A DNA stretch of 55,322 bases from a virus (IMGVR_UViG_3300037584_004943:1-55322), one strand, 5' to 3'; shown: positions 1 through 48,798, counted from the first letter of the stretch. Program-made: numbers and translations. The notes: a model not told the origin generated them from the sequence alone.

Positions 1-175
1 TAGCAAAACGTAGTGGAAACTTGTTCTCTGGCCCATACATTAAATGTATTGGTAGCTCGTATACGTGTGTACCATTTTTACGTTGACGCTCTGTTGTTAT
101 CTCTTTGATACCTAGTATCTTGAAGATAGTCATTGCCTCGCGGGCAGATCTAATTTCTGTTGACATGTATTCCAT
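1..175 (-). CDS. hypothetical early protein, partial (runs off window)
   Basis: ATG at 175-173; hand-translated open frame MEYMSTEIRSAREAMTIFKILGIKEITTERQRKNG... continues to the window edge. Confidence 0.7.
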   Translation of the reverse strand, partial: MEYMSTEIRSAREAMTIFKILGIKEITTERQRKNGTHVYELPIHLMYGPENKFPLRFA

Positions 176-197
176 ATTATTTAATTTACTTTATAAA

Positions 198-286
198 ACG
201 AGGTGGCCAAGTGAGTAAGAACAGTCAGGCTGGGGCCTCACCTGTTAGTTCCATTTTACTGAACACGTCTCACGCGCCACACTCGT
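198..286 (-). ncRNA. unclassified structured RNA element (three-way junction) in intergenic region
   Basis: Nested complementary pairs: 198-202/282-286, 203-207/276-280, 211-215/269-273, 220-224/242-246, 227-230/235-238, 248-251/261-264. GC-rich relative to flanks; begins 4 nt after the stop of 290..505. Confidence 0.6.
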
Positions 287-289
287 ATA

Positions 290-505
290 TTATTTAAGGC
301 AAGTGCCGTAACCTTTACGACTACCTGCTTTTATTAGTGCTGCAGATTGTGCTTGCGACACTATTTGTATTGTATTACCTGTTTTGTGATTAGTGAGTGG
401 AGCACAAGCAACACGCTCGATACCACTACAACTTACACAAGTTTTGTACCCGTATTTAATTCTTATTGGGTGTACGGGCTCACCACATTTACAATAATTA
501 TTCAT
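290..505 (-). CDS. small C4 zinc-finger protein (DksA/TraR-like finger)
   Basis: CKCGEPV...R...TCVSC pattern; repeated promoter motif directly upstream. Confidence 0.6.
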   Translation of the reverse strand: MNNYCKCGEPVHPIRIKYGYKTCVSCSGIERVACAPLTNHKTGNTIQIVSQAQSAALIKAGSRKGYGTCLK

Positions 506-537
506 ATTTAATAAGCTTTTGTCATATTATATTCAAT

Positions 538-570
538 TATATTATCCAAAAGTAATCGTATTTAATTTGT
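538..570 (-). promoter_or_regulatory. putative early promoter, copy 1 (minus strand ACAnAnTnnnTACGA-N7-TGGATAATA)
   Basis: One of six 33-bp copies with invariant spacing, each upstream of a minus-strand start codon. Confidence 0.75.
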
Positions 571-572
571 AT

Positions 573-956
573 TTATTTTACGTTTGGTTTTGAAATCCAT
601 ACTTGAAATACTTTTTCTGTCGCTACAAGTTTATAAGTTGTTGCAAAAGAATCTACAGTTTTACATTGTGTTGGATTATCTCCTTGCTTAGTGCATAACT
701 CTCTAGTGTCACCTACTTCATCACTCATATTTACCGTAACGCTTTTAGCTCCAGTGTATTTCACATAGTGATAGTTTTTATTGTGTTTACCAATATAAAA
801 ATACTCTAAGTCTTCATAATTCATATCTTCACAGTATAACACCATCTCGCTTCTACCAAATATACCTTTAGTTGTTACGTCAATTATTTCTGGTATTTGT
901 GCTTTAACCACATGATTACCTAGTAGTAATGCAACTGATAATGTTAATTTTTTCAT
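573..956 (-). CDS. secreted hypothetical protein
   Basis: Sec-type signal peptide MKKLTLSVALLLGNHVVKA|Q. Confidence 0.75.
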   Translation of the reverse strand: MKKLTLSVALLLGNHVVKAQIPEIIDVTTKGIFGRSEMVLYCEDMNYEDLEYFYIGKHNKNYHYVKYTGAKSVTVNMSDEVGDTRELCTKQGDNPTQCKTVDSFATTYKLVATEKVFQVWISKPNVK

Positions 957-957
957 A

Positions 958-1440
958 TTAGTATACCTCTGTTAATTTAATTTCTCTTTTATTATTAGTA
1001 GTTTCAACATAGAATTTAGCATTATACATGTTTTCATGTAACAAGTATACTGCTAGTTCGTCGTGACCGCTTAGTTGAGCGTGTATGTTACCTTTGATAA
1101 AAGAGCTCGCTATACCACTAATTTGGTTTTTAAGACTACTAAAACCTACGATTTTCTCACCGTTTAGCTCTGCGTAGAACTCAAAACTGTCATAGCGAAC
1201 GTCGTTTATTTCAGGTAAGTTAGCGATATTTACTACATAGGCAACGCCAAAGTTAACAGTCCAGCTAGTGTCGAGACCACTACAACTTGATATTGCACGA
1301 GTAGTTACGCTGTTGTCACTCATAATTTTTACATTACAAGCATTAATTAAGTCTTGCTCATACTGCTCTTGTCTACTTTCACAAGAGGTTAATGCGAGAG
1401 TAGTTGCTACTGCCATCGCTATAAATTTGTTATTCTTCAT
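958..1440 (-). CDS. putative lipoprotein
   Basis: MKNNKFIAMAVATTLALTS|C lipobox. Confidence 0.75.
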   Translation of the reverse strand: MKNNKFIAMAVATTLALTSCESRQEQYEQDLINACNVKIMSDNSVTTRAISSCSGLDTSWTVNFGVAYVVNIANLPEINDVRYDSFEFYAELNGEKIVGFSSLKNQISGIASSFIKGNIHAQLSGHDELAVYLLHENMYNAKFYVETTNNKREIKLTEVY

Positions 1441-1510
1441 AAATATGTCTTTTTAGTGCTACTAAATAATAGTAGATTAGTAAATATACCGCTAAATCTA
1501 TTGGTGTCAT
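1430..1510 (-). CDS. 26-aa hydrophobic microprotein (not in ORF track)
   Basis: MTPIDLAVYLLIYYYLVALKRHIYEE*; start coupled to the upstream stop (TAATG) and fills the intergenic gap exactly. Confidence 0.5.
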   Translation of the reverse strand: MTPIDLAVYLLIYYYLVALKRHIYEE

Positions 1511-1770
1511 TAGTTTTCGTTTTCAATTAATATAGTTCTATTTCTTACTGTAAATAGTATTTCATCTAAGTTTTCTAAGTAACTAATTCCAGTTTCAGTA
1601 TCTACTTCACCTGATTTTATATCCTCAGTAATCCACTCTATCATATCTTCAACAGTATTTATCACTTCTAAATGGTCTTCTCTTTCGATAATCACTTTTT
1701 CATCTTGTGCTTGAGCGAAACATATTCCGCTTAGTAATACACTTGCTACAGTTAATTTAATTTTATTCAT
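1510..1770 (-). CDS. secreted acidic hypothetical protein
   Basis: Signal peptide MNKIKLTVASVLLSGICFA|Q. Confidence 0.75.
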   Translation of the reverse strand: MNKIKLTVASVLLSGICFAQAQDEKVIIEREDHLEVINTVEDMIEWITEDIKSGEVDTETGISYLENLDEILFTVRNRTILIENEN

Positions 1771-1771
1771 A

Positions 1772-1945
1772 TTAGTAGTATTTATTTGCTTGTTCTTCGT
1801 TATACTTCTCTTCTAGTTTAGCAAACCACTTATCAAACTCAGCAAACTTATCATGCTCGTGCTTTACTTTAATCTTTTCTCGTGTTACCTTATTGTCTTT
1901 GTCAATAGATAAACTTATTCCATATTGTTCCCAAGTAAATTTCAT
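1772..1945 (-). CDS. hypothetical early protein (start uncertain; MKFTWEQ start preferred over 1999)
   Basis: ORF track 1772..1999; the internal ATG avoids overlap with 1962..2198. Confidence 0.6.
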   Translation of the reverse strand: MKFTWEQYGISLSIDKDNKVTREKIKVKHEHDKFAEFDKWFAKLEEKYNEEQANKYY

Positions 1946-1961
1946 ATTATTATTCTTTATT

Positions 1962-2198
1962 TTATTCCCAAGAGCGACCATGTTTACGGTCGTCTTCAAT
2001 TAGTTTTTGTACACATTTTCCCCATGACTCACGACTCTTATATCTCTTGTCTGCACTTGACATATATTCTTCAATATACTTATCTACTTCTTCCATAGTT
2101 TCTGCACCGAGAGATGTCCACTCGCCATACTTATCTGTCATCTCTACTCTGTATATTCCAGAGTCATATTGAGTTATTTCCACTGATTCTTTATTCAT
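1962..2198 (-). CDS. hypothetical early protein
   Basis: 78-aa ORF with AT-rich leader, co-oriented with neighbours. Confidence 0.7.
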   Translation of the reverse strand: MNKESVEITQYDSGIYRVEMTDKYGEWTSLGAETMEEVDKYIEEYMSSADKRYKSRESWGKCVQKLIEDDRKHGRSWE

Positions 2199-2209
2199 AA
2201 TTGTAATTT

Positions 2210-2252
2210 TAGTAGTGTGGGTGGAATCGAACCACCATTAACCGTTCACACT
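2210..2252 (-). ncRNA. tRNA-like minihelix (acceptor-like stem + T arm; no D or anticodon arm)
   Basis: Minus strand AGTGTG-AACGGTTAAT-GGTGG-TTCGATT-CCACC-CACACT-ACTA: 6-bp stem stacked on a 5-bp stem with a canonical T loop. Confidence 0.7.
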
Positions 2253-2482
2253 TAGTCTACTTGGCACTCTCTCGCCCAAGTCGGAATATTATTTGAGTTG
2301 GTATAATTACCATACTTTTGGAAACATTCCATTTCTTCTAGTTTCTCTTGATTTAAAGAGTAAACACCGTCGTGGTCATATTTAATGACGTCACCTTTTT
2401 TGTTAGTAAACTGAATCACTAATTCTTTACCAACCATTCCTTTTGAGACTACAAATCTCTTTTTTTCTACTACATTTGACAT
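2252..2482 (-). CDS. hypothetical early protein, paralog A (of 3630..3845)
   Basis: Shares KKRFV.SK and the identical block MECFQKYGNYTNSNN with 3630..3845. Confidence 0.85.
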   Translation of the reverse strand: MSNVVEKKRFVVSKGMVGKELVIQFTNKKGDVIKYDHDGVYSLNQEKLEEMECFQKYGNYTNSNNIPTWARECQVD

Positions 2483-2489
2483 AATTCTT

Positions 2490-2684
2490 TTATTTTAGTA
2501 AGTTAATTGTTTTAGTTAATATTTCTTCTTTTTCTACCATACTACAAGTATCATAACCGAACTCTGAGTATATTTCTTGAGCCAACAAGTCTTGTATTTT
2601 ATTCCAGTATGTTACCATTATATCTGTATCACCATATTGTTTCGCGTAGTTGTAATGGTATTTTAAGGTATTTAATTTAGTCAT
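2490..2684 (-). CDS. hypothetical early protein
   Basis: 64-aa ORF directly downstream of promoter copy 2. Confidence 0.7.
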   Translation of the reverse strand: MTKLNTLKYHYNYAKQYGDTDIMVTYWNKIQDLLAQEIYSEFGYDTCSMVEKEEILTKTINLLK

Positions 2685-2705
2685 AATTTATATATTTTTA
2701 TCAGT

Positions 2706-2738
2706 TATATTATCCAATTAGTATCGTATTTAATTTGT
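2706..2738 (-). promoter_or_regulatory. putative early promoter, copy 2
   Basis: Plus strand TATATTATCCA-attagta-TCGTATTTAATTTGT. Confidence 0.75.
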
Positions 2739-2968
2739 TATTTTGATGGAGTATATTGTCCGTCAAGGTATTTATTAAACGTAGTAATATCTTTGTTGAA
2801 TGACTTTAATTCTTCTAAGTCAATATAAGTATAACCTTTTAATGAGAATTGTTTTGACAATGGTATTTCTTGATAATAAGAAGGTAATTGATGTAATTGA
2901 AAAGGTATATAAGTTTTATTGTTTAGAGTAATAATGTTAAGTTGATTTGATTTAATAGAATTTGACAT
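2738..2968 (-). CDS. hypothetical early protein
   Basis: 76-aa ORF downstream of promoter copy 3. Confidence 0.7.
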   Translation of the reverse strand: MSNSIKSNQLNIITLNNKTYIPFQLHQLPSYYQEIPLSKQFSLKGYTYIDLEELKSFNKDITTFNKYLDGQYTPSK

Positions 2969-3013
2969 TGTTAATTAATTTTTAAGTTTATTATTATTTA
3001 TTTTAAGTTCAAT

Positions 3014-3046
3014 TATATTATCCAGTTTAAGTCGTATTTAGTCTGT
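3014..3046 (-). promoter_or_regulatory. putative early promoter, copy 3
   Basis: Plus strand TATATTATCCA-gtttaag-TCGTATTTAGTCTGT. Confidence 0.75.
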
Positions 3047-3169
3047 TTTTTTATTCTCATTTATTAATACTTTGTAAGGAGTACCGTTGTAAAAACGAAG
3101 TAATTGTTTTGAATTTAGTTTGTTTAATTTCTTGTCGAAACAAACTCTGTAAGTTTTATTTTTTTTCAT
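3038..3169 (-). CDS. 43-aa basic microprotein (not in ORF track)
   Basis: Hand translation MKKNKTYRVCFDKKLNKLNSKQLLRFYNGTPYKVLINENKKTD*. Confidence 0.5.
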   Translation of the reverse strand: MKKNKTYRVCFDKKLNKLNSKQLLRFYNGTPYKVLINENKKTD

Positions 3170-3180
3170 AAGAATATTTT

Positions 3181-3306
3181 TTAATTGTTTAATAAATAGG
3201 TTATATCATCTAGAGTAGTTTCCATATATTTCTCTCGACATTCATTCTTATTATATTTGAATATATTTTTTAATAAGAATTGAAGAATTTTAATTTTTAA
3301 GGTCAT
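3181..3306 (-). CDS. 41-aa microprotein (not in ORF track)
   Basis: Hand translation MTLKIKILQFLLKNIFKYNKNECREKYMETTLDDITYLLNN*; ATG 25 nt downstream of promoter copy 4. Confidence 0.55.
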   Translation of the reverse strand: MTLKIKILQFLLKNIFKYNKNECREKYMETTLDDITYLLNN

Positions 3307-3330
3307 AATTTATTATTTATTAGATTCATA

Positions 3331-3363
3331 TATATTATCCAACGAGTATCGTATTTAGTTTGT
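3331..3363 (-). promoter_or_regulatory. putative early promoter, copy 4
   Basis: Plus strand TATATTATCCA-acgagta-TCGTATTTAGTTTGT. Confidence 0.75.
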
Positions 3364-3401
3364 ATGTAAAAGTAGGTAAATCGTTTAGTGAATAGAAATC
3401 G

Positions 3402-3512
3402 TTAGGAGTTACTACTCTCATTCTCTTGTTCTATAACGAATTTTTCCATAAAGTAACAAATTGTACCAGTAATTGTAAGAATAGTAATAATTTCTAAAAT
3501 GTATAATAACAT
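3402..3512 (-). CDS. 36-aa single-TM microprotein (not in ORF track)
   Basis: Hand translation MLLYILEIITILTITGTICYFMEKFVIEQENESSNS*; AT-rich leader like neighbours. Confidence 0.55.
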   Translation of the reverse strand: MLLYILEIITILTITGTICYFMEKFVIEQENESSNS

Positions 3513-3526
3513 ATAATTTAATTTAG

Positions 3527-3573
3527 TGTGACATTAGGTAGTTAAGTAAAGAATAGTAATACCCTTTTGTCAC
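3527..3573. repeat. 47-bp element bounded by inverted repeat GTGACA/TGTCAC, copy 1
   Basis: TGTGACATTAG....TTAAG...TAGTA..ACCCTT.TGTCAC; second copy at 4170-4215. Confidence 0.75.
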
Positions 3574-3579
3574 TGTTTT

Positions 3580-3629
3580 GTAATAGACTACCGAAGTAGT
3601 TTCGACTATTGAAGTCTCATCAGTATTAC
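3580..3629 (-). ncRNA. type I hammerhead ribozyme
   Basis: Minus strand GUAAUA-CUGAUGA-GACU(UCAAU)AGUC-GAAA-CUAC(UUCG)GUAG-UC-UAUUAC: complete conserved core, three perfect stems, GUC cleavage triplet. Confidence 0.92.
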
Positions 3630-3845
3630 TTATGAAAGTCGAGCCCACACAGGTAAGTTATTACTGTTAGTGTAGTTACCGTATTTCTGGAAACACTCCA
3701 TAGTTTCAAGTTTCTCTTGATTGATTGAGTATACATCGTCATGATTGTAAGTGAATGTACCTTTTTTAGTTGTGAATGTAATTTCTACATTTTGTCCGAT
3801 TAGAGATTTTGAGATAACGAATCTTTTCTTTGTCAATTTAGTCAT
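3630..3845 (-). CDS. hypothetical early protein, paralog B (of 2252..2482)
   Basis: See paralog A; downstream of promoter copy 5. Confidence 0.85.
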   Translation of the reverse strand: MTKLTKKRFVISKSLIGQNVEITFTTKKGTFTYNHDDVYSINQEKLETMECFQKYGNYTNSNNLPVWARLS

Positions 3846-3878
3846 AATAATTTAATTTAGTTTAATAGTTTATTTGTA

Positions 3879-3911
3879 TATATTATCCAATGTTAGTCGT
3901 ATTTATATTGT
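3879..3911 (-). promoter_or_regulatory. putative early promoter, copy 5
   Basis: Plus strand TATATTATCCA-atgttag-TCGTATTTATATTGT. Confidence 0.75.
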
Positions 3912-3998
3912 GAATAATATTGTTAGTTGTATTGTTATTGTAATAAGTTGTAGTATTATTGTATTTGTTTTATTGTATGTATTATTTGAATTTCTCAT
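3903..3998 (-). CDS. 31-aa hydrophobic microprotein (shortened from track ORF 3903..4154)
   Basis: MRNSNNTYNKTNTIILQLITITIQLTILFTI*; ATG just downstream of promoter copy 6. Confidence 0.45.
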   Translation of the reverse strand: MRNSNNTYNKTNTIILQLITITIQLTILFTI

Positions 3999-4004
3999 TA
4001 CATA

Positions 4005-4037
4005 GTTATTATCCAATACATATCGTACTAAGTTTGT
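4005..4037 (-). promoter_or_regulatory. putative early promoter, copy 6
   Basis: Plus strand GTTATTATCCA-atacata-TCGTACTAAGTTTGT. Confidence 0.7.
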
Positions 4038-4169
4038 AAAAACGTAGAAAAATACAGAAAATCGGTAAAATATGTGGCGGGCTGGTGAAATAATATTGAT
4101 TTTTGTATATGGCTGGGTATCAGGTAGGTAGGGGGCTACACAAAATATATACATTTATAACAATTTTTT

Positions 4170-4215
4170 TGTGACATTAGCCTATTAAGAAGTATTAGTA
4201 GCACCCTTGTGTCAC
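4170..4215. repeat. 46-bp element bounded by inverted repeat GTGACA/TGTCAC, copy 2
   Basis: TGTGACATTAGcctaTTAAGaagtatTAGTAgcACCCTTgTGTCAC. Confidence 0.75.
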
Positions 4216-4253
4216 GCTTTTAATATATTAACTATACGAGTAATAATATCTAT

Positions 4254-4499
4254 ATGGCACAGAAACTATCACCAGAAGCTGCTAAAGCTAAAGCCAAGAG
4301 AGATCTTGAGTATGCTAAGTCTCCTAAGCGTAAGCTAAGGAAGGCTCAGAATCAAGTAAAGCGTCGTGCTTTAAAAAAGAAAGGTTTTAGCTTATCTAAT
4401 AAAGACGTGCATCACTGTCCTGAGTCTGGTAAATTAACATTGGTGTCGGTAGCTAGTAATAGAGGTAATTTCGGTAACGGTACTAAAAACGAAGGATAA
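4254..4499 (+). CDS. small basic HNH-like protein
   Basis: KDVHH...SNRG motif typical of minimal phage HNH proteins. Confidence 0.55.
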   Translation: MAQKLSPEAAKAKAKRDLEYAKSPKRKLRKAQNQVKRRALKKKGFSLSNKDVHHCPESGKLTLVSVASNRGNFGNGTKNEG

Positions 4500-4867
4500 T
4501 GGCATACGTACAAAAAAATAATCCGTTTCCAGTTACTAGCTGTGGTAGACGTAGAGCTGGTGGTATAGGTAGTGGCTTTTTAAAAGCTGAACCACGTAGG
4601 ACTATTGGAAGAGGTAAAAACTTTAATCCAGTATCAAAAGATAAGAGTGCTACAGGTGGCGCAGCAGGTGGTGGTATGACTGAGAAAGGTGTTACAGAAT
4701 ACAAGCTTAAGAATCCTGGTAGTAAGTTACAAACCGCAGTGACAACACCTCCTTCTAAGCTTAAACCTGGTAGTAAAGCTGCTAAACGTAGAAAATCATT
4801 CTGCGCTAGATCTAAAAACTGGAAAAGTGAAAGAGGTTTAGCTGCTAGACGTAGATGGAATTGTTAA
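4499..4867 (+). CDS. small basic phage protein (RRKSFCAR...RRWNC, DUF6321-like)
   Basis: Motif recognised from phage small basic proteins; N-terminus MAYVQKNNPF. Confidence 0.7.
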   Translation: MAYVQKNNPFPVTSCGRRRAGGIGSGFLKAEPRRTIGRGKNFNPVSKDKSATGGAAGGGMTEKGVTEYKLKNPGSKLQTAVTTPPSKLKPGSKAAKRRKSFCARSKNWKSERGLAARRRWNC

Positions 4868-6499: not shown

Positions 6500-8071
6500 A
6501 TGGAATACAATCTCCCTAGCGAGATCGTCAAAGAGCTTAATTTTGGCGATGAAGCTAAAAATAGAATTATTGCTGGCGTAGACAAGTTAGCAAAAGCAGT
6601 AAAATCAACACTAGGAGCATCTGGAAAGTGCGTTATCTACGAAGACGCGCGAGGAAACCCTGTAATTACCAAAGATGGTGTTACAGTTGCTCAATCAGTA
6701 GTGTTGCTTGACCCAGTAGAAAACTTAGGAGCAACTCTTATTAAAGAAGCTGCGCAAAACACAGTGAAAGAAGCAGGTGATGGTACCACTACGGCTACCG
6801 TCCTTGCTGAAGCACTGTTGAAAGAAGTTAATAATGAAAACTGGAAAGATGCCTCTATAAGAGAAATTAAAGAAGGCATATACTCCGGCCTTAAAAAGAT
6901 TAACGAATATCTTGACGGCAAAGCTATTAAAGTTGAAGGAGACATGCTTAAAAGTGTATCTGCTATCTCATGCAATAATGATGAACTATTAGGATCGATT
7001 ATCGCTGAAGCTTACGATAAAGTAGGTAAAGACGGCGTGGTATTGATGGAAACATCTGAAACTGAAGAAACCTACGTTGAATTAGTAGATGGCGTTCAAA
7101 TAGATTGTGGATTAACTTCTCCACATTTCGTTACAAACACAGAGAAACATAAATGTGAACTAGAAAATCCTTTAGTTCTTATAGTATCCTCTGAAATCCC
7201 TAACATACGTAAAATCCAAACAATATTAGAACATGTTATCAAACAAGGTAGAGCCTTACTTATTGTAGCACCTGTTGCTCAGCAAGTAAAATCTGCGTTA
7301 CTTATGAATAAAGTAAAAGGTAACATTAAGGTTAACATTGTTGATCTACCAGGCTTTGGACCTACTAAGAAGGACTGTACTGAAGATTTAGCTATATTAA
7401 CCGGTGCTACTGTAATAAATGAAGAGCTAGGTGATGATTTAGATCTTATTAGCGTTGATCATTTAGGAGAAGCTGAGTTTGCTACTACAGATGATAAGAG
7501 CACTGTTATAACGCTAGAAGAGATGAACGAAGATATTGAAGAGCGTATTGATGAGGTAGTCAAGAAGATCGCTGATGAAAAGAACGGGTTTTTAAAGAAA
7601 AAGCTAGAGTCTAGATTAGCCATGCTATCTGGTAGCGTTGGCATCATTAGAGTTGGCGCTGATTCTAAAGTAGAGCTTAAAGAAAAGAAAGATCGCGTTG
7701 AAGACGCTATATATGCAACAAAAGCGGCACTGAAAGAAGGCATTGTTCCCGGCGGTGGTGTAGCGTTGTTAAACGCCTCTCAAAAAATTTCGACCGACAA
7801 CGTCGGCGAAGAGATTCTTCTAAAAGCTATTAGAACTCCTTTCGACACTATATTAGCAAATGCTGGTATAGAAGTTATGGATGGAACTGTAGATCATGAA
7901 GGTTATGGTAAAGATGCTATAACTGGAGAAAGAATTGATATGATCAAATCAGGCATCGTAGATCCCGTACTTGTTACCAAGTCGGCGCTGAAAAACGCGG
8001 TGAGCGTGGTATCAACCATCATCTCTGCAGATTGTGTAATTTCAAACATCCGAGTAAATGAAGGCAGTTAA
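6500..8071 (+). CDS. groEL: phage chaperonin GroEL
   Basis: ITKDGVTVA, AGDGTTTATVLA, KEKKDRVEDA, EGIVPGGG motifs; no C-terminal GGM tail. Confidence 0.97.
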   Translation: MEYNLPSEIVKELNFGDEAKNRIIAGVDKLAKAVKSTLGASGKCVIYEDARGNPVITKDGVTVAQSVVLLDPVENLGATLIKEAAQNTVKEAGDGTTTATVLAEALLKEVNNENWKDASIREIKEGIYSGLKKINEYLDGKAIKVEGDMLKSVSAISCNNDELLGSIIAEAYDKVGKDGVVLMETSETEETYVELVDGVQIDCGLTSPHFVTNTEKHKCELENPLVLIVSSEIPNIRKIQTILEHVIKQGRALLIVAPVAQQVKSALLMNKVKGNIKVNIVDLPGFGPTKKDCTEDLAILTGATVINEELGDDLDLISVDHLGEAEFATTDDKSTVITLEEMNEDIEERIDEVVKKIADEKNGFLKKKLESRLAMLSGSVGIIRVGADSKVELKEKKDRVEDAIYATKAALKEGIVPGGGVALLNASQKISTDNVGEEILLKAIRTPFDTILANAGIEVMDGTVDHEGYGKDAITGERIDMIKSGIVDPVLVTKSALKNAVSVVSTIISADCVISNIRVNEGS

Positions 8072-33814: not shown

Positions 33815-35188
33815 ATGACTAAAAATAAAAAATCTCCAATGAAATATAATGCAGCTCTAGTGGATGCTGTAAGTAGAGCTTATGCTAGCGAAGGTAATAT
33901 GTTTACTGAAAAAGCTATGCAGAGCTTAACAAAACCTATGTTTGGCACCATCAGTAAAATGGCAGAGGCTACCGCTGAGGCTGCTAAAAAAGCTGGAGCT
34001 TTAAACGCTACCATGGGTAGTAAAATTAAAGGATTAGATGGTGTACACCCTAAAATAACAGACACTATATTAAAACTACAAGGCGAGGCTAATCAAGCAG
34101 AGATTAACGCTGGTAAGGTCATACAGTCTGGAGGAAATAGACAAAAATCTTTGCAAGATATGCAAATTGTTGGTAAAAAACTAGACACTTTAATAGAGGC
34201 TGATGAGCATATAAAATCATTGCAAGCTCACGCTTTAGAAAACAAGTTGAATAGATCTAAGTCGTTAAACAAAGAAAATGAGATATTGTGGAACCAAGTT
34301 GCCAGTGGTAATATATGGAACATGCTATCATATAATGAAGAGACTGGGTCTATGATGATACAAAACCCTATGGGTGGTCAAGGTGACTTAATGGACATTA
34401 GAGATTTACAGGTTATGCCTACTTTCGATATTAAGTACTTAGACAACGACTCTAAAACTAAAAAGCAAATGAAACAGTTTGCGAAAAACGAAGGATACAC
34501 TAGAGAAGAAGCTGAGCAAGAAGCTAGAGTAATGACTAAAAAGCTTTTCGCACTCCACGACGGAGATGATATGTATGATGATCCTGATTTTGACGAATTT
34601 GCTAAAACATTATATGGTAATCCAGATATAGAACCAACAGGAGAAAAGTGGATTGATAATGCTAACGATGCTTTAATGCAGGGGGCTGGCTCTGAATTTT
34701 TTGAAGCACACACTACGTTTGGTGATGATGACGATAGATCAGAAGATCTTAGAAGAAATACTTTAGTAAACGGTATGAAGTCTGTAGATTTGAGCGAGTC
34801 TTTTATGGAGTTTAAAACTAAAAAGCTCATGGAGGCTTATGATAACGTTATTATACAAAAAGAAACTAAAGAAAACAATAGCTTAATCACAGAAGAAAAC
34901 GATAAAACATATCCCGTATATACATACAACAAGCAAGGTACTTACATGGGCGCTGCTCAGAAAACAGCTGGTGAAGTAAGATCTATGTTTGATATAGATT
35001 CTGGTGATTTTTCTTTTGGTAAACGCCGCGTGAAAGTTAAAACTGGTAGCAAAGGAGATAGAATTTGGCAAATTTACGATATAAGCGGTACAGAACAATT
35101 GCCTGGTAAGGTATATCGTAAATTAGAAGATGTTTTAAATGACTTTGCGCCATACGCCGCTAAAACAACTACATCAAAACTTCCTTAA
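33815..35188 (+). CDS. putative internal virion protein
   Basis: 457-aa helical protein between two internal protein genes. Confidence 0.55.
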   Translation: MTKNKKSPMKYNAALVDAVSRAYASEGNMFTEKAMQSLTKPMFGTISKMAEATAEAAKKAGALNATMGSKIKGLDGVHPKITDTILKLQGEANQAEINAGKVIQSGGNRQKSLQDMQIVGKKLDTLIEADEHIKSLQAHALENKLNRSKSLNKENEILWNQVASGNIWNMLSYNEETGSMMIQNPMGGQGDLMDIRDLQVMPTFDIKYLDNDSKTKKQMKQFAKNEGYTREEAEQEARVMTKKLFALHDGDDMYDDPDFDEFAKTLYGNPDIEPTGEKWIDNANDALMQGAGSEFFEAHTTFGDDDDRSEDLRRNTLVNGMKSVDLSESFMEFKTKKLMEAYDNVIIQKETKENNSLITEENDKTYPVYTYNKQGTYMGAAQKTAGEVRSMFDIDSGDFSFGKRRVKVKTGSKGDRIWQIYDISGTEQLPGKVYRKLEDVLNDFAPYAAKTTTSKLP

Positions 35189-35199
35189 TAATATAAAAT

Positions 35200-38100
35200 A
35201 TGTTTGAATACGAATTAGACGGTGAAGTATTACAATTCACTCAAGAAGATGTTGATAACAGAGCTAAAGAAAAAGGCTTAACAACGGAAGATTATTTAAC
35301 TCAGCATCCAGAGGTAAAACCTGTAGAGGTGGAAAAGACAGAAGACGTTGCGGAGCCGGGTGTGGCTGTAGCGTCAGAGACTACAGCACCCGACGTTTCG
35401 GCATCCAGCTCGGAGGATACTTCTTCGGATTTACCAGCAGCGAGTGATCAAGAAGAAACAGCTATAAAAGCAAAATCATTAGGCTTTGATGTTGTACCTG
35501 GAGCTAGACAAGAAGGAGATACTATATATGGTGTAATGTTGCCAGAAGCTAAAGCTAGCCCACTGACAGCTGACGAACAATTTAAGTTAAAAGAAACTCA
35601 ACTAAATGTAGATATTGAAAACTTTACTGAGCAAGAATCTAAGGCTAGACAATCTTTAGATGAGTTTAAAGCTCAAAACTTTGATAACAATATAGAATTA
35701 AACGCATTATCTAATCAAGCAGAAGAAATAATAAGAACAGTAGGCTTAGATAGATTTAAAAAAGGTTTAGCTGCTAAGCCTGTTTATGATGAGTATAACA
35801 AAATAATAAGCAAACAAAAAGAACTGCTAGGGCCGCTGTCAAAAGAATACGGCGGTATGGTTGATGCTTATAACGAGATAGCTAAGCAAGGTCTTCCTTT
35901 AAATGATAGATTAGAAGAGTATAATGCTGAGGTAGCAGAGAAAAACAAAAACAAAAGTCCAGAAGATATAAAAGCCGAGCAAGCTCTTAGAGAAGGTAAA
36001 AAAGAGTTATACGCGTTAACTAGAGGTGTTCCAAGTTATTTAGCTCCATACTTCGCTGGTATAGACGCTTTTGCAGCTACTACTATAGGAGGTTTAATAG
36101 AATTAGTAGACAACTATGGCTACAAACCTGCCATAGCTGCTATAAAATCATTAGATCCAGAAAAATCGTTTGAAGAAAGTTTAAGAGAAACTATTAGCGA
36201 AGGTTATGATATAGATACAGACTTGTTCTATGAATTTGCTGAAGAAATGAATAGTCTTCAGTCTAAGTTTTATGACGACGAAGGAAAAGAGATAGGAGCT
36301 ACAGACTTGCTATTAGAAGGAAGGGTTTTAGATGCCGCTGCTGTAATATCTGAACAGGCGGTTGCTTCAGCACCTTCTTTTGCGCTTTCTGTAGGTATGC
36401 CTGTTGCTGGTTCTGCTATATTAGGATTATCTGTGGCTGGTACAGAAACTAAAGAAAACTTAGAGAAAAGAGCTAGCGAAGGCTTAGGTAAAGCTTATGC
36501 TAACGGTGCAACTAAAGGTGCTAATGAATACTTATGGGAGTTCGTAGGTGGTAAAACTTTTAGAGCTATTAAAAAAGCTAGAGGCGTAGATGTGTCTGAA
36601 GAGCTTGTTAGAGAGTTACCTAAAAATATTTATATTCAAACTTTAAAAAAAGCTGGTTTAGGATTTGGTGGTGAAGGTTTTACAGAAGCGTTGACAGAAG
36701 CTAGTAATTTAGGAGCTGACAAAATTATTTATGGAACTGAAGTAGAAATAACCCAAGCTCTAAAACAGACTTTTGATGCTTTTCTTATAGGTGGTTTTTT
36801 AGGTGGTCCTGTATCGGGGGTTACTGCAAATATTAATAGAGTTCAAAAAGAACAAGTGTTTGAAATGATGGCGCCTGTAGAGTGGCAGCTTGAAAACAAT
36901 AAATACGAGCTTCAAAAAGCTCAAATTAAAAACGACTTAGATAAAGCGCCTGACGCAGCCAAGCCTTATATGCAAGAAAAGCTAGATGAGGTTACTAAAA
37001 AGCAACAAGAAGCTAAAGATAAAATATTCAAGGCTTTTGATAGTATGAGTCAAGGGGAGCTTGAAGCCTACGCTAAAGAGTTTGATAGCATTAATAAAAA
37101 AGCCTCTGTAGTTAGTAGTAATAAAGTTTCAAAAGAAGCTAGAACTCAAGCTGAGCAAGACATTAATCAAGCTTACGCTAACATGGAAGGTCTTATAGGC
37201 GAGTCAATAAATACCGCTTTTGAAAAGCAAGTGGTAATGGCTAAAGAGTCTATAAAAAAAGGTAAAGACTTTAGAAAAGGTGTTAAAGGTTTATTAGGTG
37301 CATTAAAAAATAAAGGTGCTAAAATACAAATGAACTTTGGTAGCCAAGAAGAGTTTAAGGCACATCTAAGAGAACAGCAGTTAGATCAAGAGGCTGAGGT
37401 TATAGCTATAATTCAAGGCATGAACGAAATAATAGCTGATGAAACCGCAGATCAAGAGACTAGGCAAGAAGCTATAGATATAAAAGAGTTTTACACTCAA
37501 TATCAAAGAAACCAGTTAAACGCTATTGAAGGCGCTGCTTCAAGATATGGTAGTGCTACACCTAATGCCGACGGTTCGTTTAGTATATTTGTAAACGACG
37601 ATGCTGAAATACGCGACGGTGTTTTTACTACAGATGCTCACGAGTTAGGTCACGCTATAGTATATTTGGTATCAAAAGGTAATCCAGAACTAGCGGCTCA
37701 GCTTGGTAAAGAGCTTAAAACTGAAATAGATGCTAGAGCTGAAGATTTAGAAGGTACTGTTTTTCAAAGAAGATATGAAAGCTATACTAAAGAAGAAGGA
37801 CAAGAGTTTGAAATATTCTCGTTAGCTGTAGAGTCTATATCTGATGGTGATTTACAGTTTAACAAAGGTTTGCTTGAAGGAATAAACGACGGTTTTAGAA
37901 GATGGTTTAAATCTGTTACTGGTAAAGCATATAGCTTTGACTCAGGCAAAGACGTGTTTAACTTCTTAAAAGATTATCAAAAATCTATAGAAAAAGGCGT
38001 TGTTAACAAAGGTCTTGTTAATACTATAGTAGACGGAGCTTCTGGTAAATTAACAGAAGGTTATGCTAAGGCTATAGCTATTGATCCAGACGAAAGAGAG

Positions 38101-44809: not shown

Positions 44810-45631
44810 ATGTTAGGATTAGGAAATAGTATGACTGGAGGAGCTGCTCTTAAAGCTGCTTTTGCTCCCGCAAGCCTTGGTAGTTTAGATATACATTACG
44901 ACTTTAGTACATTAACAGGAAGTGATGACGACGCTGTTGCCTCTTTTGCAAACGCTGGAGCAGGTGGAAGTGATTATAATCTTTCAAACGCGACTGGATC
45001 ACAACAACCACAGCTTAGCACCGACGAGATGAACCTAAACTCTCTTCATTTTGACGGTAATGATAGAATGCAAATGGCTAATGCGTACTTAACAACTGAT
45101 AAAACTTTTACTTTTTTCTGTGTTTTTACTTCTGATGATTTAGCTGCAGATACTTTTTTTGCTGGATCTGACGCTGGTAATGATCAAATAGGTACTTTTA
45201 ATACTATAAACGTCACGACAAGATTTAACGCTGACGCGGGCGCTAATCATAACTCCGCTTTGTATATTAAAACAAGCACTACAACTGGTGATGAGTATGA
45301 TCCAGATGGAGACGGAAGTTTTAACAACTCTGATATTACTACAACAGCTTTTACTTTTAGCGCGTCTACTACCCATGTGTTAGTTATAACGAGAGACGCT
45401 AGCAACACTGTTAAAATATTTAACGAAGACCAAAATTTAATAGGCGCAGGTACTTCCAAAACAAACGGTCAAGCTGATACTAATTTTGACGTACAATGGA
45501 TAGGGTCATTTAGCAGCGGTAGTAGTTCAGCTCAAGGAACAATTGGAGAAATAGGTTTGTATAATAAAACGCTATCAGACAGCGAAGCGCAAACGCTAGC
45601 AGGTTACTTAGCAACTAAATGGAATGCATAA
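44810..45631 (+). CDS. LamG/concanavalin-like beta-sandwich protein
   Basis: MLGLGNS start; LHFDGND; G.IGEIGLYN..LS..E...L..YL..KW. Confidence 0.75.
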   Translation: MLGLGNSMTGGAALKAAFAPASLGSLDIHYDFSTLTGSDDDAVASFANAGAGGSDYNLSNATGSQQPQLSTDEMNLNSLHFDGNDRMQMANAYLTTDKTFTFFCVFTSDDLAADTFFAGSDAGNDQIGTFNTINVTTRFNADAGANHNSALYIKTSTTTGDEYDPDGDGSFNNSDITTTAFTFSASTTHVLVITRDASNTVKIFNEDQNLIGAGTSKTNGQADTNFDVQWIGSFSSGSSSAQGTIGEIGLYNKTLSDSEAQTLAGYLATKWNA

Positions 45632-48600
45632 TGAAAAAGTTAATTACATTTTTATTTTTAATCAACATAGCTTTTGCACAAGACTCTTGGGTAAAAGTTG
45701 TTTTACTAACTGATGATTATCCAGTAGAAACATCTTGGTATATAATTGATGCTAATAACGATACTATAGCACAGAGTCAAGAAGGTATGCTTGAAAATAC
45801 TGTTTACGAGGATAGTGTTGATTTGCTTTCTGGCAACTATAAAGTACAATTAAAAGATTCTTATGGAGATGGTCTTGGAGCAAGTCAATGGGGAGGAGTT
45901 GATGGTTCTTTTGTAGTTGAAAACACTTGTCAAGGAACATTAATGGAAGCTTATGGTAATTTTGGTTCTGAACTTGTACAAGATTTATTTATAGCGCCTT
46001 GCGCTCCTCCTGTATTTGAACCGTGCTTAGGAGTTGATAGTACTAACGCTTATCAACTTTGTTGGGGTAGTCAGTCTGCTGTAGTTTTTGAATGGTGGAC
46101 ACCTGTAGAAAACACAGGCTGTGATGTTACAAAACTACATCTTAGTACAGAAAACGGATATAACTTTACTTGGCCAGGATTATGGGCAGCTTCTAATGGT
46201 TACAATAACTTTGCCGCTCCAGTAGGACCAGGTCAAATGCCTCCAAACTGGGAGGAAGAACACTATATGGTTTTAGAGTTTGCTGATAGCTCTTTTTCAG
46301 ACACTATATATTTTATGCCAGACCCTTGTATACCAGGTTGTACAGATCCAACACAACCTACTTATAATCCATGGGCAACTGTAGATAATGGTAGTTGCGC
46401 AGGTACAGTATGTGACACTGCTACTCAACATCAAATTACAATGCAAATTACATTTGATAATTGGCCTGGCGAAACTGGTTGGACAATGAATAGTGCTGGA
46501 GTAATTGGACAAGCTTTACCTGGTGAGTACAACTTTAATGATATAGGTAAAACATACACTTATGACTTCTGTGTTCAGCAATCTGGTTTTGAACTTATAT
46601 TAACTGACGCGTTTGGAGATGGATTAGCTGGTGCTACATCTGGTGGATCTTTAGATGGTTATGTTGTTATATTTGATTGCAATGGAGATACTATATGGGA
46701 GTTAACTAATCCAGATTTTGGCGATGTAACCTACTCAGGACTTCAACAGGGTGCTGATTGTTTTGTAGAACCTATAATCGCTGGTTGTACTGATGATGAT
46801 TATGTTGAGTACAATTACGAAGCCACAGAAGATGATAGTAGCTGTGTTACTCTACATGTTTACGGATGTACAGATTCTACTTTTTACAATTATAATCCTA
46901 ACGCTACTATTAATGATATAGTACCAGATTGTGATTATACTTTATACATAGGTGACGCTGCTGGAGATGGTTGGGGTAATTCGTACCTAGGTGTTTACCA
47001 AAGCGGTGTAGCACTTGGTACTTTTACAATGGGTCCTGGTAATTTGTTAAATGACTTTCCTTTAATACTAGACTCAGATAAACCTGTTGAAGTTTATTAC
47101 TTTGAAATCGGTGGACCACAAACACCACCTGAAGAAGTACAGTTTCAAACATGGCATAACTCATTTTATTTAGTAAATTCACTAGGAGATACTTTATTAG
47201 CAGAGGGAACTAATCCATTTGAGAACAATGGTCAAGGTGCTCTTCAGTCTTTTGATGCTCCGTTTTGGACTACGTATACAGCAGCTCCTTATTGTGGAGA
47301 TTACTGTGAACCATTTACCTACGGCTGTATGGATTCACTAGCTGTAAACTATGATAGCGCTGTTAATACAGAAGATGGCAGTTGTTATTATAATCCTGGT
47401 TGTACATCGTCTGCATATCTTGAATATTACGATCAAGGTTTTGTAGCAGACTACGACGACAACTCGTGTCAGACTTTAGCTATTTGGGGGTGTACTGACA
47501 GCACCATGTATAACTTTAGCCCGGTAGCAAATATTGACAATGGGGGCTGTATATCTTTCGTATACGGATGTATGGACCCCACCGCGTTTAACTACGATCC
47601 TTTAGCTACGGCGGAGGATGTGTGTATAGCATACTTGTACGGATGTACAGACCCAACAGCTTTTAACTATAACGAAGAAGCAAACGCTGACAATGGTGCT
47701 TGCGAGCCTGTTGTTTTTGGATGTACAGACTCTACAGCTTTCAATTATAGTCTAGTAGCAAATACAGATAACGGTAGCTGTTTAGATTTTGTTTACGGTT
47801 GTACAGATCCATCAGCTTTAAATTATAATGCCTTAGCGAATGTTGAAGACTTTAGTTGTATAGACTATATTTATGGGTGTACTGATCCTATGATGTTTAA
47901 CTATAACCCTAATGCTAACACAGAAAATGGATCTTGTATACCGTTCGTTTATGGATGTACAGATGAAGACGCTTTGAATTATGATGCTTTAGCTAACACA
48001 GATGATAACACTTGTATTGATTACATATATGGTTGTACTAATACTGAGGCGTTTAATTATCAAGCTACAGCAAATACTGATGATGGTAGCTGTATAGAGT
48101 ATGCCTATGGATGCATCGACCCTACTATGTTTAATTATAACGCTGAGGCTAACGCTGATGATGGAAGCTGTGTTCCTTATGTCTACGGTTGCTTAGACGC
48201 TACAATGTGGAATTACTGCGATACTTGTAATACTGATAATGAAAGTTGTATAGAATATGTTTATGGATGTACAGATAGTTTGGCGCTCAATTATAACGAT
48301 GATGCAAATACCGATAATGGTAGCTGTATTTATCCTTTGCCTGGCTGCACTGATCCGACCGCTCTTAATTACAATATCGATGCTAACGTGTCGGACAGTT
48401 CTTGCTATTATTCTGCTGGTTGCGCTGTTGGTGATATATACACTCTTCCTAATGAATGTTTTGCTTGGGTAATTGAAGTAGACGAATACTGTTGCAACAT
48501 ATCTTGGGATGGCGGTTGTGTTGATCTTTACCAATATTGCCAAGATGGATGGTCAGGACCTACAGATATAATTGAGATTAGATATGGTTTGTTTACATAT

Positions 48601-48798
48601 CCCAACCCTACAAGTGATTATATATACGTAAATAGTAGGCTGAAAGTCGACATTACAGTCATTAATATGCTTGGGGATATAGTAATATCTAAGAAAAAAG
48701 TAAACACATTAGATGTGTTTAAATTAGCTCCTGGAGTATACAACGTGTTGATAGAACACGAAAACATAAAGGTAAATAAAAAGATTATAAAACAATAA
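45631..48798 (+). CDS. T9SS type A CTD protein with GCTD repeats (start reassigned to MKKLIT)
   Basis: Signal peptide ...IAFA|Q; three D..GDG domains; 17 GC(T/M)D-type repeats; C-terminal YPNP...L.PGVY....KKIIK. Confidence 0.85.
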   Translation: MKKLITFLFLINIAFAQDSWVKVVLLTDDYPVETSWYIIDANNDTIAQSQEGMLENTVYEDSVDLLSGNYKVQLKDSYGDGLGASQWGGVDGSFVVENTCQGTLMEAYGNFGSELVQDLFIAPCAPPVFEPCLGVDSTNAYQLCWGSQSAVVFEWWTPVENTGCDVTKLHLSTENGYNFTWPGLWAASNGYNNFAAPVGPGQMPPNWEEEHYMVLEFADSSFSDTIYFMPDPCIPGCTDPTQPTYNPWATVDNGSCAGTVCDTATQHQITMQITFDNWPGETGWTMNSAGVIGQALPGEYNFNDIGKTYTYDFCVQQSGFELILTDAFGDGLAGATSGGSLDGYVVIFDCNGDTIWELTNPDFGDVTYSGLQQGADCFVEPIIAGCTDDDYVEYNYEATEDDSSCVTLHVYGCTDSTFYNYNPNATINDIVPDCDYTLYIGDAAGDGWGNSYLGVYQSGVALGTFTMGPGNLLNDFPLILDSDKPVEVYYFEIGGPQTPPEEVQFQTWHNSFYLVNSLGDTLLAEGTNPFENNGQGALQSFDAPFWTTYTAAPYCGDYCEPFTYGCMDSLAVNYDSAVNTEDGSCYYNPGCTSSAYLEYYDQGFVADYDDNSCQTLAIWGCTDSTMYNFSPVANIDNGGCISFVYGCMDPTAFNYDPLATAEDVCIAYLYGCTDPTAFNYNEEANADNGACEPVVFGCTDSTAFNYSLVANTDNGSCLDFVYGCTDPSALNYNALANVEDFSCIDYIYGCTDPMMFNYNPNANTENGSCIPFVYGCTDEDALNYDALANTDDNTCIDYIYGCTNTEAFNYQATANTDDGSCIEYAYGCIDPTMFNYNAEANADDGSCVPYVYGCLDATMWNYCDTCNTDNESCIEYVYGCTDSLALNYNDDANTDNGSCIYPLPGCTDPTALNYNIDANVSDSSCYYSAGCAVGDIYTLPNECFAWVIEVDEYCCNISWDGGCVDLYQYCQDGWSGPTDIIEIRYGLFTYPNPTSDYIYVNSRLKVDITVINMLGDIVISKKKVNTLDVFKLAPGVYNVLIEHENIKVNKKIIKQ
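47323..48405 (+). repeat. 14 tandem ~26-aa GCTD...NY...AN.D.GSC coding repeats
   Basis: Counted in translation; approx. 78-bp period, divergent at DNA level. Confidence 0.85.

Follow-up and report, generated by a model that had tools for sequence, protein, structure and literature searches.

The virus record IMGVR_UViG_3300037584_004943 of the IMG/VR database is a linear DNA of 55,322 bp, estimated to be 89% complete, and the whole record is the window analysed here. Small minus-strand genes fill bases 1-4150 of the window. Behind the stop codon of one of them, gene A, lies the subject of this study: a stretch of 43 bases (minus strand, 2252-2210) that has the shape of the upper half of a transfer RNA (tRNA) and is called the minihelix in what follows. 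The first base of its stem, at 2252, is also the third base of the UAA stop codon of gene A. The features of the locus, read from the list of open reading frames (ORFs) and from the sequence, are the following.

2252-2482, minus strand: gene A, 76 aa, stop codon UAA at 2254-2252 (ORF list, translation)
2247-2252, minus strand: 5' strand of the acceptor-like stem, AGUGUG (sequence, RNAfold, covariation with 2214-2219)
2237-2246, minus strand: linker AACGGUUAAU, 10 nt, where a tRNA has its D and anticodon arms, with AA..GGUU conserved
2220-2236, minus strand: T arm, made of GGUGG (2236-2232), the loop UUCGAUU (2231-2225) and CCACC (2224-2220)
2214-2219, minus strand: 3' strand of the acceptor-like stem, CACACU (sequence, RNAfold, covariation)
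2210-2213, minus strand: unpaired tail ACUA, a discriminator-like A and then CUA at the position of a tRNA's CCA
1962-2198, minus strand: downstream gene, 78 aa, without known family, its AUG at 2198 standing eleven bases past the tail

Both stems, of 6 bp and 5 bp, are perfect, and the structure described in an earlier note on this DNA is exact by sequence reading and by RNAfold. The proposed fold is both the minimum free energy structure and the centroid structure, at -12.8 kcal/mol. The T-loop consensus GGTTCRANYCC has one match in the window against 0.10 expected, with at least one match in 10 of 100 shuffled sequences. By analogy with tRNA, the AA..GGUU of the linker would touch the T loop in the manner of G18/G19 and so form a tRNA elbow.

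Conservation behind gene A

Gene A has relatives on 18 viral contigs, and the minihelix stands behind all 14 readable A orthologues, which are those of the window and of contigs L002-L014; L015 runs off the contig end and was excluded from the readable loci. The acceptor-like stem varies in sequence and stays paired (AGUGUG/CACACU, AGUGUA/UACACU, AAUGUA/UACAUU, AGUAUA/UAUACU), and the T stem of the relatives occurs as GGUGG/CCACC, AGUGG/CCACU and, with a G.U pair, GGUGG/CCGCC. An alignment of the element, A1, holds 13 distinct rows, six of which came through protein homology (window, L002, L005, L012, L013 and L014). It leaves out identical rows, the long-linker forms of L003/4, L008 and L009/10, and 27 members of the wider class with other linker lengths. 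All 139 of its 139 cells are paired, and in six of the 11 pairs both partners have changed. Covariation scores 0.541, compared with 0.152 for shuffled alignments, none of 500 shuffles reaching the former value, and when the partners are slid by one to three columns the pairing falls to 30-54%. Covariation in homologs had been named in advance as a check on the structure, and the kept pairing and compensatory changes speak in its favour.

The unpaired parts are conserved as well. In A1 the linker has an invariant A, A, G, G, U, U and A, and in the tail the C is invariant, while the U and the A are at least 90% conserved. Identity to the window copy is 0.84-1.00 across the minihelix, compared with 0.71-0.82 at the third codon positions of gene A and 0.92-0.96 at positions 1 and 2. 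The minihelix is thus more conserved than third codon positions, and is therefore under purifying selection; this bears out the view of the earlier note that two perfect stems argue against the random decay of a tRNA gene. A covariance model made from A1 finds one copy in the window, at 68.9 bits, and a single strong one in every one of five relatives (four records that are 98-100% complete and one that is 70% complete). Downstream of the minihelix the relatives differ, and carry other genes or a promoter-like motif, which follows immediately in L002, L006 and L007. The minihelix remains with gene A while its downstream neighbour varies, which fits a 3'-end module of the upstream message.

A wider class and a shared slot behind stop codons

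Viral contigs were scanned for TGGTT followed, after a gap of 4-34 nt, by a GTGG T arm, with the acceptor strands left unspecified. The scan gave at least 118 stretches, the long-gap matches being ordinary tRNAs. There were at least 37 distinct short-gap matches, whose flanks were unfiltered; among the matches listed, 32 of 37 have at least five consecutive acceptor pairs, compared with 0 of 37 when the 5' strand is reversed, and 30 of 37 have AA before UGGUU, which was absent from the search pattern. Relaxing the T stem led to 39 distinct elements, selected with a filter that demanded pairing, whose acceptor and T stems are diverse. Several contigs carry two copies with different stems. A search for the class signature in 185,579 species, each represented by a single genome, yielded 10 matches, nine of them in Bacteroidota (Chryseobacterium twice, Flavipsychrobacter, Carboxylicivirga, Dysgonomonas and others). 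The tenth, in Chloroflexota, is not minihelix-like by eye and was rejected. The single match whose context was examined, L225, lies in a Mu-like prophage with AAA_22 and DUF3164 genes. The minihelix class is phage-borne and concentrated in phages of Bacteroidota.

The position of these elements relative to genes is biased. In 22 of the 39, the first base lies no more than 17 nt from the stop codon of an ORF on the same strand that encodes 40 aa or more, as against 142 of 1950 at random (7.3%) and one of 39 in the opposite orientation. The stop codon itself is overlapped or abutted by eight of 39, with 35 of 1950 at random (1.8%) and none of 39 in the opposite orientation. Outside the gene A family the overlapping cases belong to unrelated phages (L042, L055 with two copies, and L068). 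Past the first unpaired base the tail reads CUA in 12 elements, CAA in eight and CCA in none of the 39. A comparison of 3' trailers with those of real phage tRNAs was set aside, since the end coordinates given by ARAGORN are unreliable; the same program falsely calls the L055 minihelix a tRNA-Phe with poor stems.

The window holds a second gene of the same protein family, gene B, and protein comparison bears out that genes A and B are paralogs, as had been claimed.

3630-3845, minus strand: gene B, paralog of gene A, 71 aa (ORF list, translation)
3580-3629, minus strand: hammerhead ribozyme, directly past the stop codon of gene B, helix I GUAAUA/UAUUAC, core CUGAUGA..GAAA

On sequence reading, 3580-3629 has the hammerhead core (CUGANGA..GAAA..UH) and the three helices. 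UUCG closes helix III, and cleavage is predicted after C3586. The Rfam model RAGATH-1-hammerhead gives it 23.2 bits (E 0.67), below the cut-off of 56.3. Relatives provide 10 distinct versions, with covariation in each of the three helices. Further hammerheads occur in L014 (1754-1805 and 2046-2101), and L008 has a match to the hammerhead core at about 2891-2931 (Rfam type III, 28.3 bits, below the cut-off of 48.5).

For the A/B protein family 88 loci were compared, 18 related to A and 70 to B. Two run off their contig, and 72 distinct 3' flanks were sorted by what stands past the stop codon.

T-loop minihelix: 11 of 72 distinct flanks
Hammerhead alone: 10 of 72
Hammerhead with a GUGACA...UGUCAC element: 6 of 72
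GUGACA...UGUCAC element alone: 25 of 72
Something else: 20 of 72, four of these being shorter than 50 nt

In the 16 hammerhead flanks helix I overlaps or abuts the stop codon, for example in UAAUA-CUGAUGA...GUC-UAUUA, which parallels the overlap of the stop codon with the stem of the minihelix. The minihelix and the hammerhead thus alternate in one slot, and site-specific cleavage is the only known activity of the ribozyme; by analogy, the minihelix would mark a cut.

Other sequences were seen in the same slot. The GUGACA...UGUCAC element, past the stop in 31 of the 72 distinct flanks, has a pyrimidine-rich interior of about 34 nt; in the window it lies at 3528-3573 (minus strand), between the hammerhead and an ORF for a membrane peptide of 36 aa (about 3402-3512, minus strand). 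A sequence of about 45 nt (..AAGUCGAAAGAUCGCUCCACGUGGUGAACAACGUAAAUCGUGG..) is common to L014 3229-3290, where it stands in a broken minihelix frame, and L145 1714-1800, where the frame is hammerhead-like; it may be a chimeric or a different RNA module. A third paralog subgroup, marked by ...PTWAREHQV..., is found in L147, L157, L167, L180, L195, L197 and L204. Its first 100 nt past the stop hold a GC-rich hairpin, GCCGCC-GCAA-GGCGG, and two or three copies of UGUAUAGCA, an arrangement that resembles a repeat bound by protein or else a further RNA module.

Genomic setting and known RNA classes

The window encodes a Cpn60 chaperonin, a class II ribonucleotide reductase and a MazG protein, and also a protein with the sorting tail of the type IX secretion system (T9SS), a mark of Bacteroidota. 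The GroEL-type chaperonin gene (Cpn60_TCP1, E 3e-55) lies at 6500-8071 on the plus strand, and the protein with the C-terminal T9SS sorting domain, of 1059 aa, at 45619-48798 on the plus strand. The portal protein shares 41-52% identity with those of phages of Flavobacterium and Maribacter and of an uncultured Caudoviricetes record, and 29-38% with those of Cellulophaga phages. By this protein the nearest cultured relatives are phages of Flavobacteriia, and the top match is annotated as a P22-like portal. Gene A, gene B and their neighbours match no Pfam or PHROG family above threshold. A DNA search with 1500-4500 found no close phage record.

The unit that contains gene A is headed by a promoter-like motif.

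2706-2717, minus strand: promoter-like motif UUGGAUAAUAUA

Exact minus-strand copies of UUGGAUAAUAUA stand at 538-549, 2706-2717, 3331-3342 and 3879-3890, and a copy with one mismatch at 3014-3025. The motif is part of a longer conserved block (ACAAAUUAAAUACGAU...), is always a little upstream of a minus-strand start codon, and found no fit in a scan for sigma-70 promoters. Because each copy sits shortly before a start codon, its sequence context suggests that it is probably the early promoter of the phage. The next exact copy downstream of the gene A unit is that at 538-549, and the minihelix is therefore inside a multi-gene unit (2717 to 549). At about 185-290 on the minus strand of the window, in L002 (5100-5190) and in L005, L009, L011 and L013, is a conserved structured sequence ending in ...UCUUACUCACUUGGCCACCUCGUUUU, with a hairpin and a U run and a terminator-like appearance. 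Relatives carry a longer tRNA-like element directly after it (AGCUAG ... UGAGG-UUCGAUU-CCUCA-CUAGCU-ACUAA), L011 has a real tRNA-Arg(UCU) in this place, and in the window the place is empty.

Comparison with known RNA classes left the minihelix without a family. ARAGORN calls no tRNA gene and no transfer-messenger RNA (tmRNA) gene in the window; Rfam reports no family in the window at the gathering threshold and no tRNA at E<=10 in 1900-4200. The sole Rfam match to the minihelix at E<=10 is a tmRNA fragment that covers the 17-nt T arm, at 12.7 bits. A canonical tRNA gene was rejected on these grounds and because only 10 nt separate the 5' acceptor strand from the T stem. The tRNA-like domain of a tmRNA was likewise rejected, as ARAGORN finds no tmRNA and the Rfam match is restricted to the T arm. 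So was an intrinsic terminator: no terminator-like site is seen at 2210-2252, and the tail, ACUAAAAUUAC, is without a U run.

A 52-nt query with the element matched only the T arms of tRNA-Met genes and an unannotated T-loop region of the E. coli phage St11Ph5. The latter (MG208881.1, L208, Escherichia phage St11Ph5, N4-like) is an intergenic stretch at about 35150-35270, without a tRNA call by ARAGORN, that contains a pair of T-loop hairpins, GGG-UUCGAUU-CCC and GGUGG-UUCGAUU-CCAUC; in this tractable phage it may represent a tRNA-like element. In MW202828.1 (L216/L217), which among deposited relatives has the closest portal protein, two neighbouring tRNA-like elements lie at 592-700; they are built differently, one of them with a 10-bp outer stem, a D-arm-like hairpin with the loop AAAUGGUA, and a T arm, without an anticodon arm.

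A proposed processing signal and its alternatives

We favour, at slightly better than even odds, the reading that the minihelix is a signal for processing by the host enzymes ribonuclease (RNase) P and RNase Z and for forming a 3' end, a phage counterpart of the t-elements of plant mitochondria. Among the roles proposed in the earlier note, a cut site for RNase P or RNase Z has the best support, from covariation, the elbow-type linker, the post-stop position and the hammerhead in the same slot, all of it indirect. The T loop, the D-loop-like GG and the 3' tail of a tRNA are surfaces recognised by the enzymes of tRNA maturation. The conserved unpaired parts of the minihelix (T loop, AA-GGUU linker and C-U-A tail) are the surfaces that such enzymes read, which supports the processing reading. 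An encoded CCA blocks RNase Z, and its absence from all 39 class members agrees with processing by way of RNase Z. In L011 the real tRNA-Arg(UCU) has the trailer ACUA, identical to the tail of the minihelix.

The acting enzymes, the cut sites and the effect on expression, as we infer them, would be as follows. The minihelix would act in cis as a tRNA top half on an early polycistronic phage messenger RNA (mRNA), and would offer its stack of acceptor stem and T arm, with the D-loop-like GG linker, to the host RNase P, RNase Z and CCA-adding enzyme. A cut of RNase Z type after the discriminator-like A2213 would separate the message of gene A from the downstream genes, leaving the gene A mRNA with a compact tRNA-like 3' end and freeing the downstream message with a leader of 14 nt. 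A further cut may be made by RNase P at the 5' edge, where it would fall on the border of the stop codon or within it and release a minihelix of about 40 nt. Together with host enzymes, the minihelix would be to gene A what the self-cleaving hammerhead is to paralog B. Neither a CCA-adding enzyme (PolyA_pol) nor RtcB has a match in the 89%-complete record, and therefore the processing would fall to the host.

Several points weigh against this reading. Taken by itself the fold lacks significance (z = -1.01; among 200 shuffles, 32 fold as well or better), and the stack has 11 bp compared with the 12 bp of a tRNA; a twelfth layer would be an A.A mismatch. Seven of the 13 rows of A1 were picked by a pattern and a filter that demanded pairing. 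In five deposited relatives (MW202828.1, Maribacter phage Panino, Flavobacterium phage elemoD, and Cellulophaga phages phi40:1 and phi18:3) the covariance model found no convincing copy, the best reaching 20.3 bits with the architecture absent by eye. Seventeen of the 39 class members are more than 17 nt from a stop codon, and four of the eight that overlap or abut one come from the gene A family and are therefore not independent. The hammerhead cuts 3' of itself, and the parallel is good for a cut of RNase Z type, not for one by RNase P. An RNase P cut at the 5' edge of the stem would, moreover, take away some of the stop codon, and the non-stop message that results looks costly.

A bolder extension goes further. 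Phages of Bacteroidota would punctuate their transcripts generally with interchangeable stop-codon cassettes, either a hammerhead or a tRNA top half, and the RNase P cut would make a non-stop mRNA and so shut off the upstream gene. We hold this to be an unlikely proposal. Such a switch can be likened to the messages of plant mitochondrial ccmC and nad6, in which, in the excerpted account, RNase P cuts inside the reading frame and no stop codon is left (PMC1920247).

The first rival has the minihelix released as a stable tRNA-like small RNA of about 40 nt with a function in trans. It might be a sponge or decoy that occupies a host factor binding the acceptor stem and T arm, such as a toxin that modifies the acceptor end, a tRNA-modifying enzyme or the CCA-adding enzyme. 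The conserved T loop and GG linker would then be recognition surfaces for protein or RNA, the freely varying acceptor sequences would mean that shape matters over sequence, and the two copies with different stems on several contigs would be explained; released t-elements are also CCA-tailed and base-modified in the excerpts of PMC11658184. An RNA acting in trans, however, has no need to start at stop codons on the gene strand, as 22 of the 39 elements do, or to be interchangeable with a hammerhead, and one copy per genome in this phage group would be a weak dose for a sponge. The earlier note had thought of a decoy for tRNA-targeting defences: for anticodon nucleases this falls away, as there is no anticodon arm to mimic their target, and for the rest the siting at stop codons is unneeded in trans. 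The whole reading in trans, this remainder included, is in our view unlikely.

A second rival, which we also consider improbable, is an effect in cis on translation, that is on termination, recycling, re-initiation at the gene 53 nt downstream, or a folding or cleavage that depends on the ribosome. It would account for the excess of stems that overlap or abut the stop codon (eight of 39, four of them in the gene A family), for the like behaviour of hammerhead helix I, and for a next start codon so close to the tail. But many members stand 4-17 nt or more from the stop codon, the minihelix of L002, L006 and L007 precedes the promoter-like motif and not a coupled gene, and a plain hairpin would suffice for coupling, which leaves the conserved T loop and GG linker unexplained.

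In L008 the same slot holds a 73-nt version. Its alignment to the tRNA model of Rfam runs over the full length and scores 23.0 bits (E 0.0058 for the 141 nt searched), below the threshold of 29 bits, and the minihelices of L003/4 and L009/10, intermediate in length, carry an extra hairpin of 17 nt. On the strength of this tRNA-like long form and the intermediate forms, the sequences suggest that the minihelix descended from a tRNA gene by internal deletion. In the tree of gene A the long form is nested among short ones and the middle forms appear in two places; such a tree is compatible with deletion as well as with insertion, and module exchange is likely. These lengths and the real tRNA-Arg about 2 kb away in L011 would also fit a decaying relic without function, but this is very improbable, as both stems are maintained by compensatory changes, conservation exceeds that of third codon positions, and the same minimal architecture with its AAUGGUU linker recurs in unrelated contigs.

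Finally, phage attachment sites (attP) often copy the T arm and 3' acceptor strand of a tRNA, but the suggestion that the minihelix is such a remnant of a host tRNA 3' end, used for site-specific integration, is scarcely credible: its T arm and 3' strand (GGTGGTTCGAYTCCACCYACAYT) have no match in one genome from each of 185,579 bacterial and archaeal species; Phage_integrase (PF00589) and Resolvase (PF00239), searched with positive controls, have none in the 89%-complete record, of which the missing 11% or so could hold one; the 5' and 3' strands covary, a feature that an attP core could do without; and the nearest cultured relatives are the Flavobacteriia phages named above, with their P22-like portal match.

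The processing reading finds its closest parallels in a few described systems, for which we draw on excerpts of the cited papers. The t-elements are tRNA-like, carry the GGTTCRANYCC motif, stand at mRNA ends and serve there as substrates of both RNase P and RNase Z (Forner et al. 2007, PMC1920247); they receive a CCA tail and modified bases, and are not aminoacylated (PMC11658184). The minihelix resembles them in the T-loop motif, the tRNA-like form and the place at the end of a protein message, and it has both an acceptor-like stem on a GGTTCRANYCC T arm and the coding-strand position at the message end. It differs in that t-elements, in these sources, are organellar and homologues of nearly full-size tRNAs with mapped cleavage, whereas the phage element is a top half of 39-43 nt with a fixed AAYGGUU linker and a predicted cleavage. 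In animal mitochondria, tRNA units between genes set the ends of mRNAs, and incomplete stop codons are possible; the units there are functional tRNAs, whereas the phage minihelix is unable to decode.

Bacterial RNase P acts on several substrates that are not tRNAs, among them the C4 RNA precursor of phages P1 and P7, phage M3 RNA, operon mRNAs and the tmRNA precursor (PMC11143913). Like the minihelix, these place an acceptor/T-like stack on phage or operon RNAs. They are single cases with unrelated sequences, and none is described in the excerpts of PMC11143913 as a recurrent module at stop codons. In the mascRNA/MALAT1 module, a long transcript contains a tRNA-like fold to which RNase P and RNase Z are recruited, and the mature 3' end is made in this way (PMC8457004); unlike the minihelix, the module is, in that account, eukaryotic and nuclear, with a full cloverleaf-like fold and no relation to a stop codon. 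The theta ribozymes, which resemble that of hepatitis delta virus (HDV), adjoin phage tRNAs and help to mature real suppressor tRNAs (PMC10879173). They likewise join self-cleaving ribozymes with tRNA-type processing in phage transcripts; unlike that case, as excerpted, ribozyme and tRNA mimic are here alternatives to each other. The minihelix is like the intergenic phage and bacterial hammerheads (Rfam RF03152) in occupying the same post-stop slot in the same protein family. A review calls their function largely unknown, with processing of polycistronic transcripts as a suggestion that awaits proof (PMC6765202). The hammerhead cleaves itself, leaving 2',3'-cyclic phosphate and 5'-OH ends, whereas the minihelix would need host enzymes. 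A full-text literature search, with motif catalogues in supplements outside its range, returned no description of such a phage minihelix class. We found no paper on it, and the class is apparently undescribed, with plant mitochondrial t-elements as the closest known systems.

The minihelix is a compact and well-covarying RNA class that is absent from Rfam 15 and that tRNA finders miss or miscall. As a small cleavage cassette processed by the host, it could serve as a tool in Bacteroidota. The slot that holds either a minihelix or a hammerhead in one protein family gives a direct handle on the purpose of phage and bacterial hammerheads. If the processing reading is true, phages would possess a counterpart of organellar tRNA punctuation and of t-elements, in which a module of 40 nt borrows the tRNA-maturation enzymes of the host to cut and finish viral messages.
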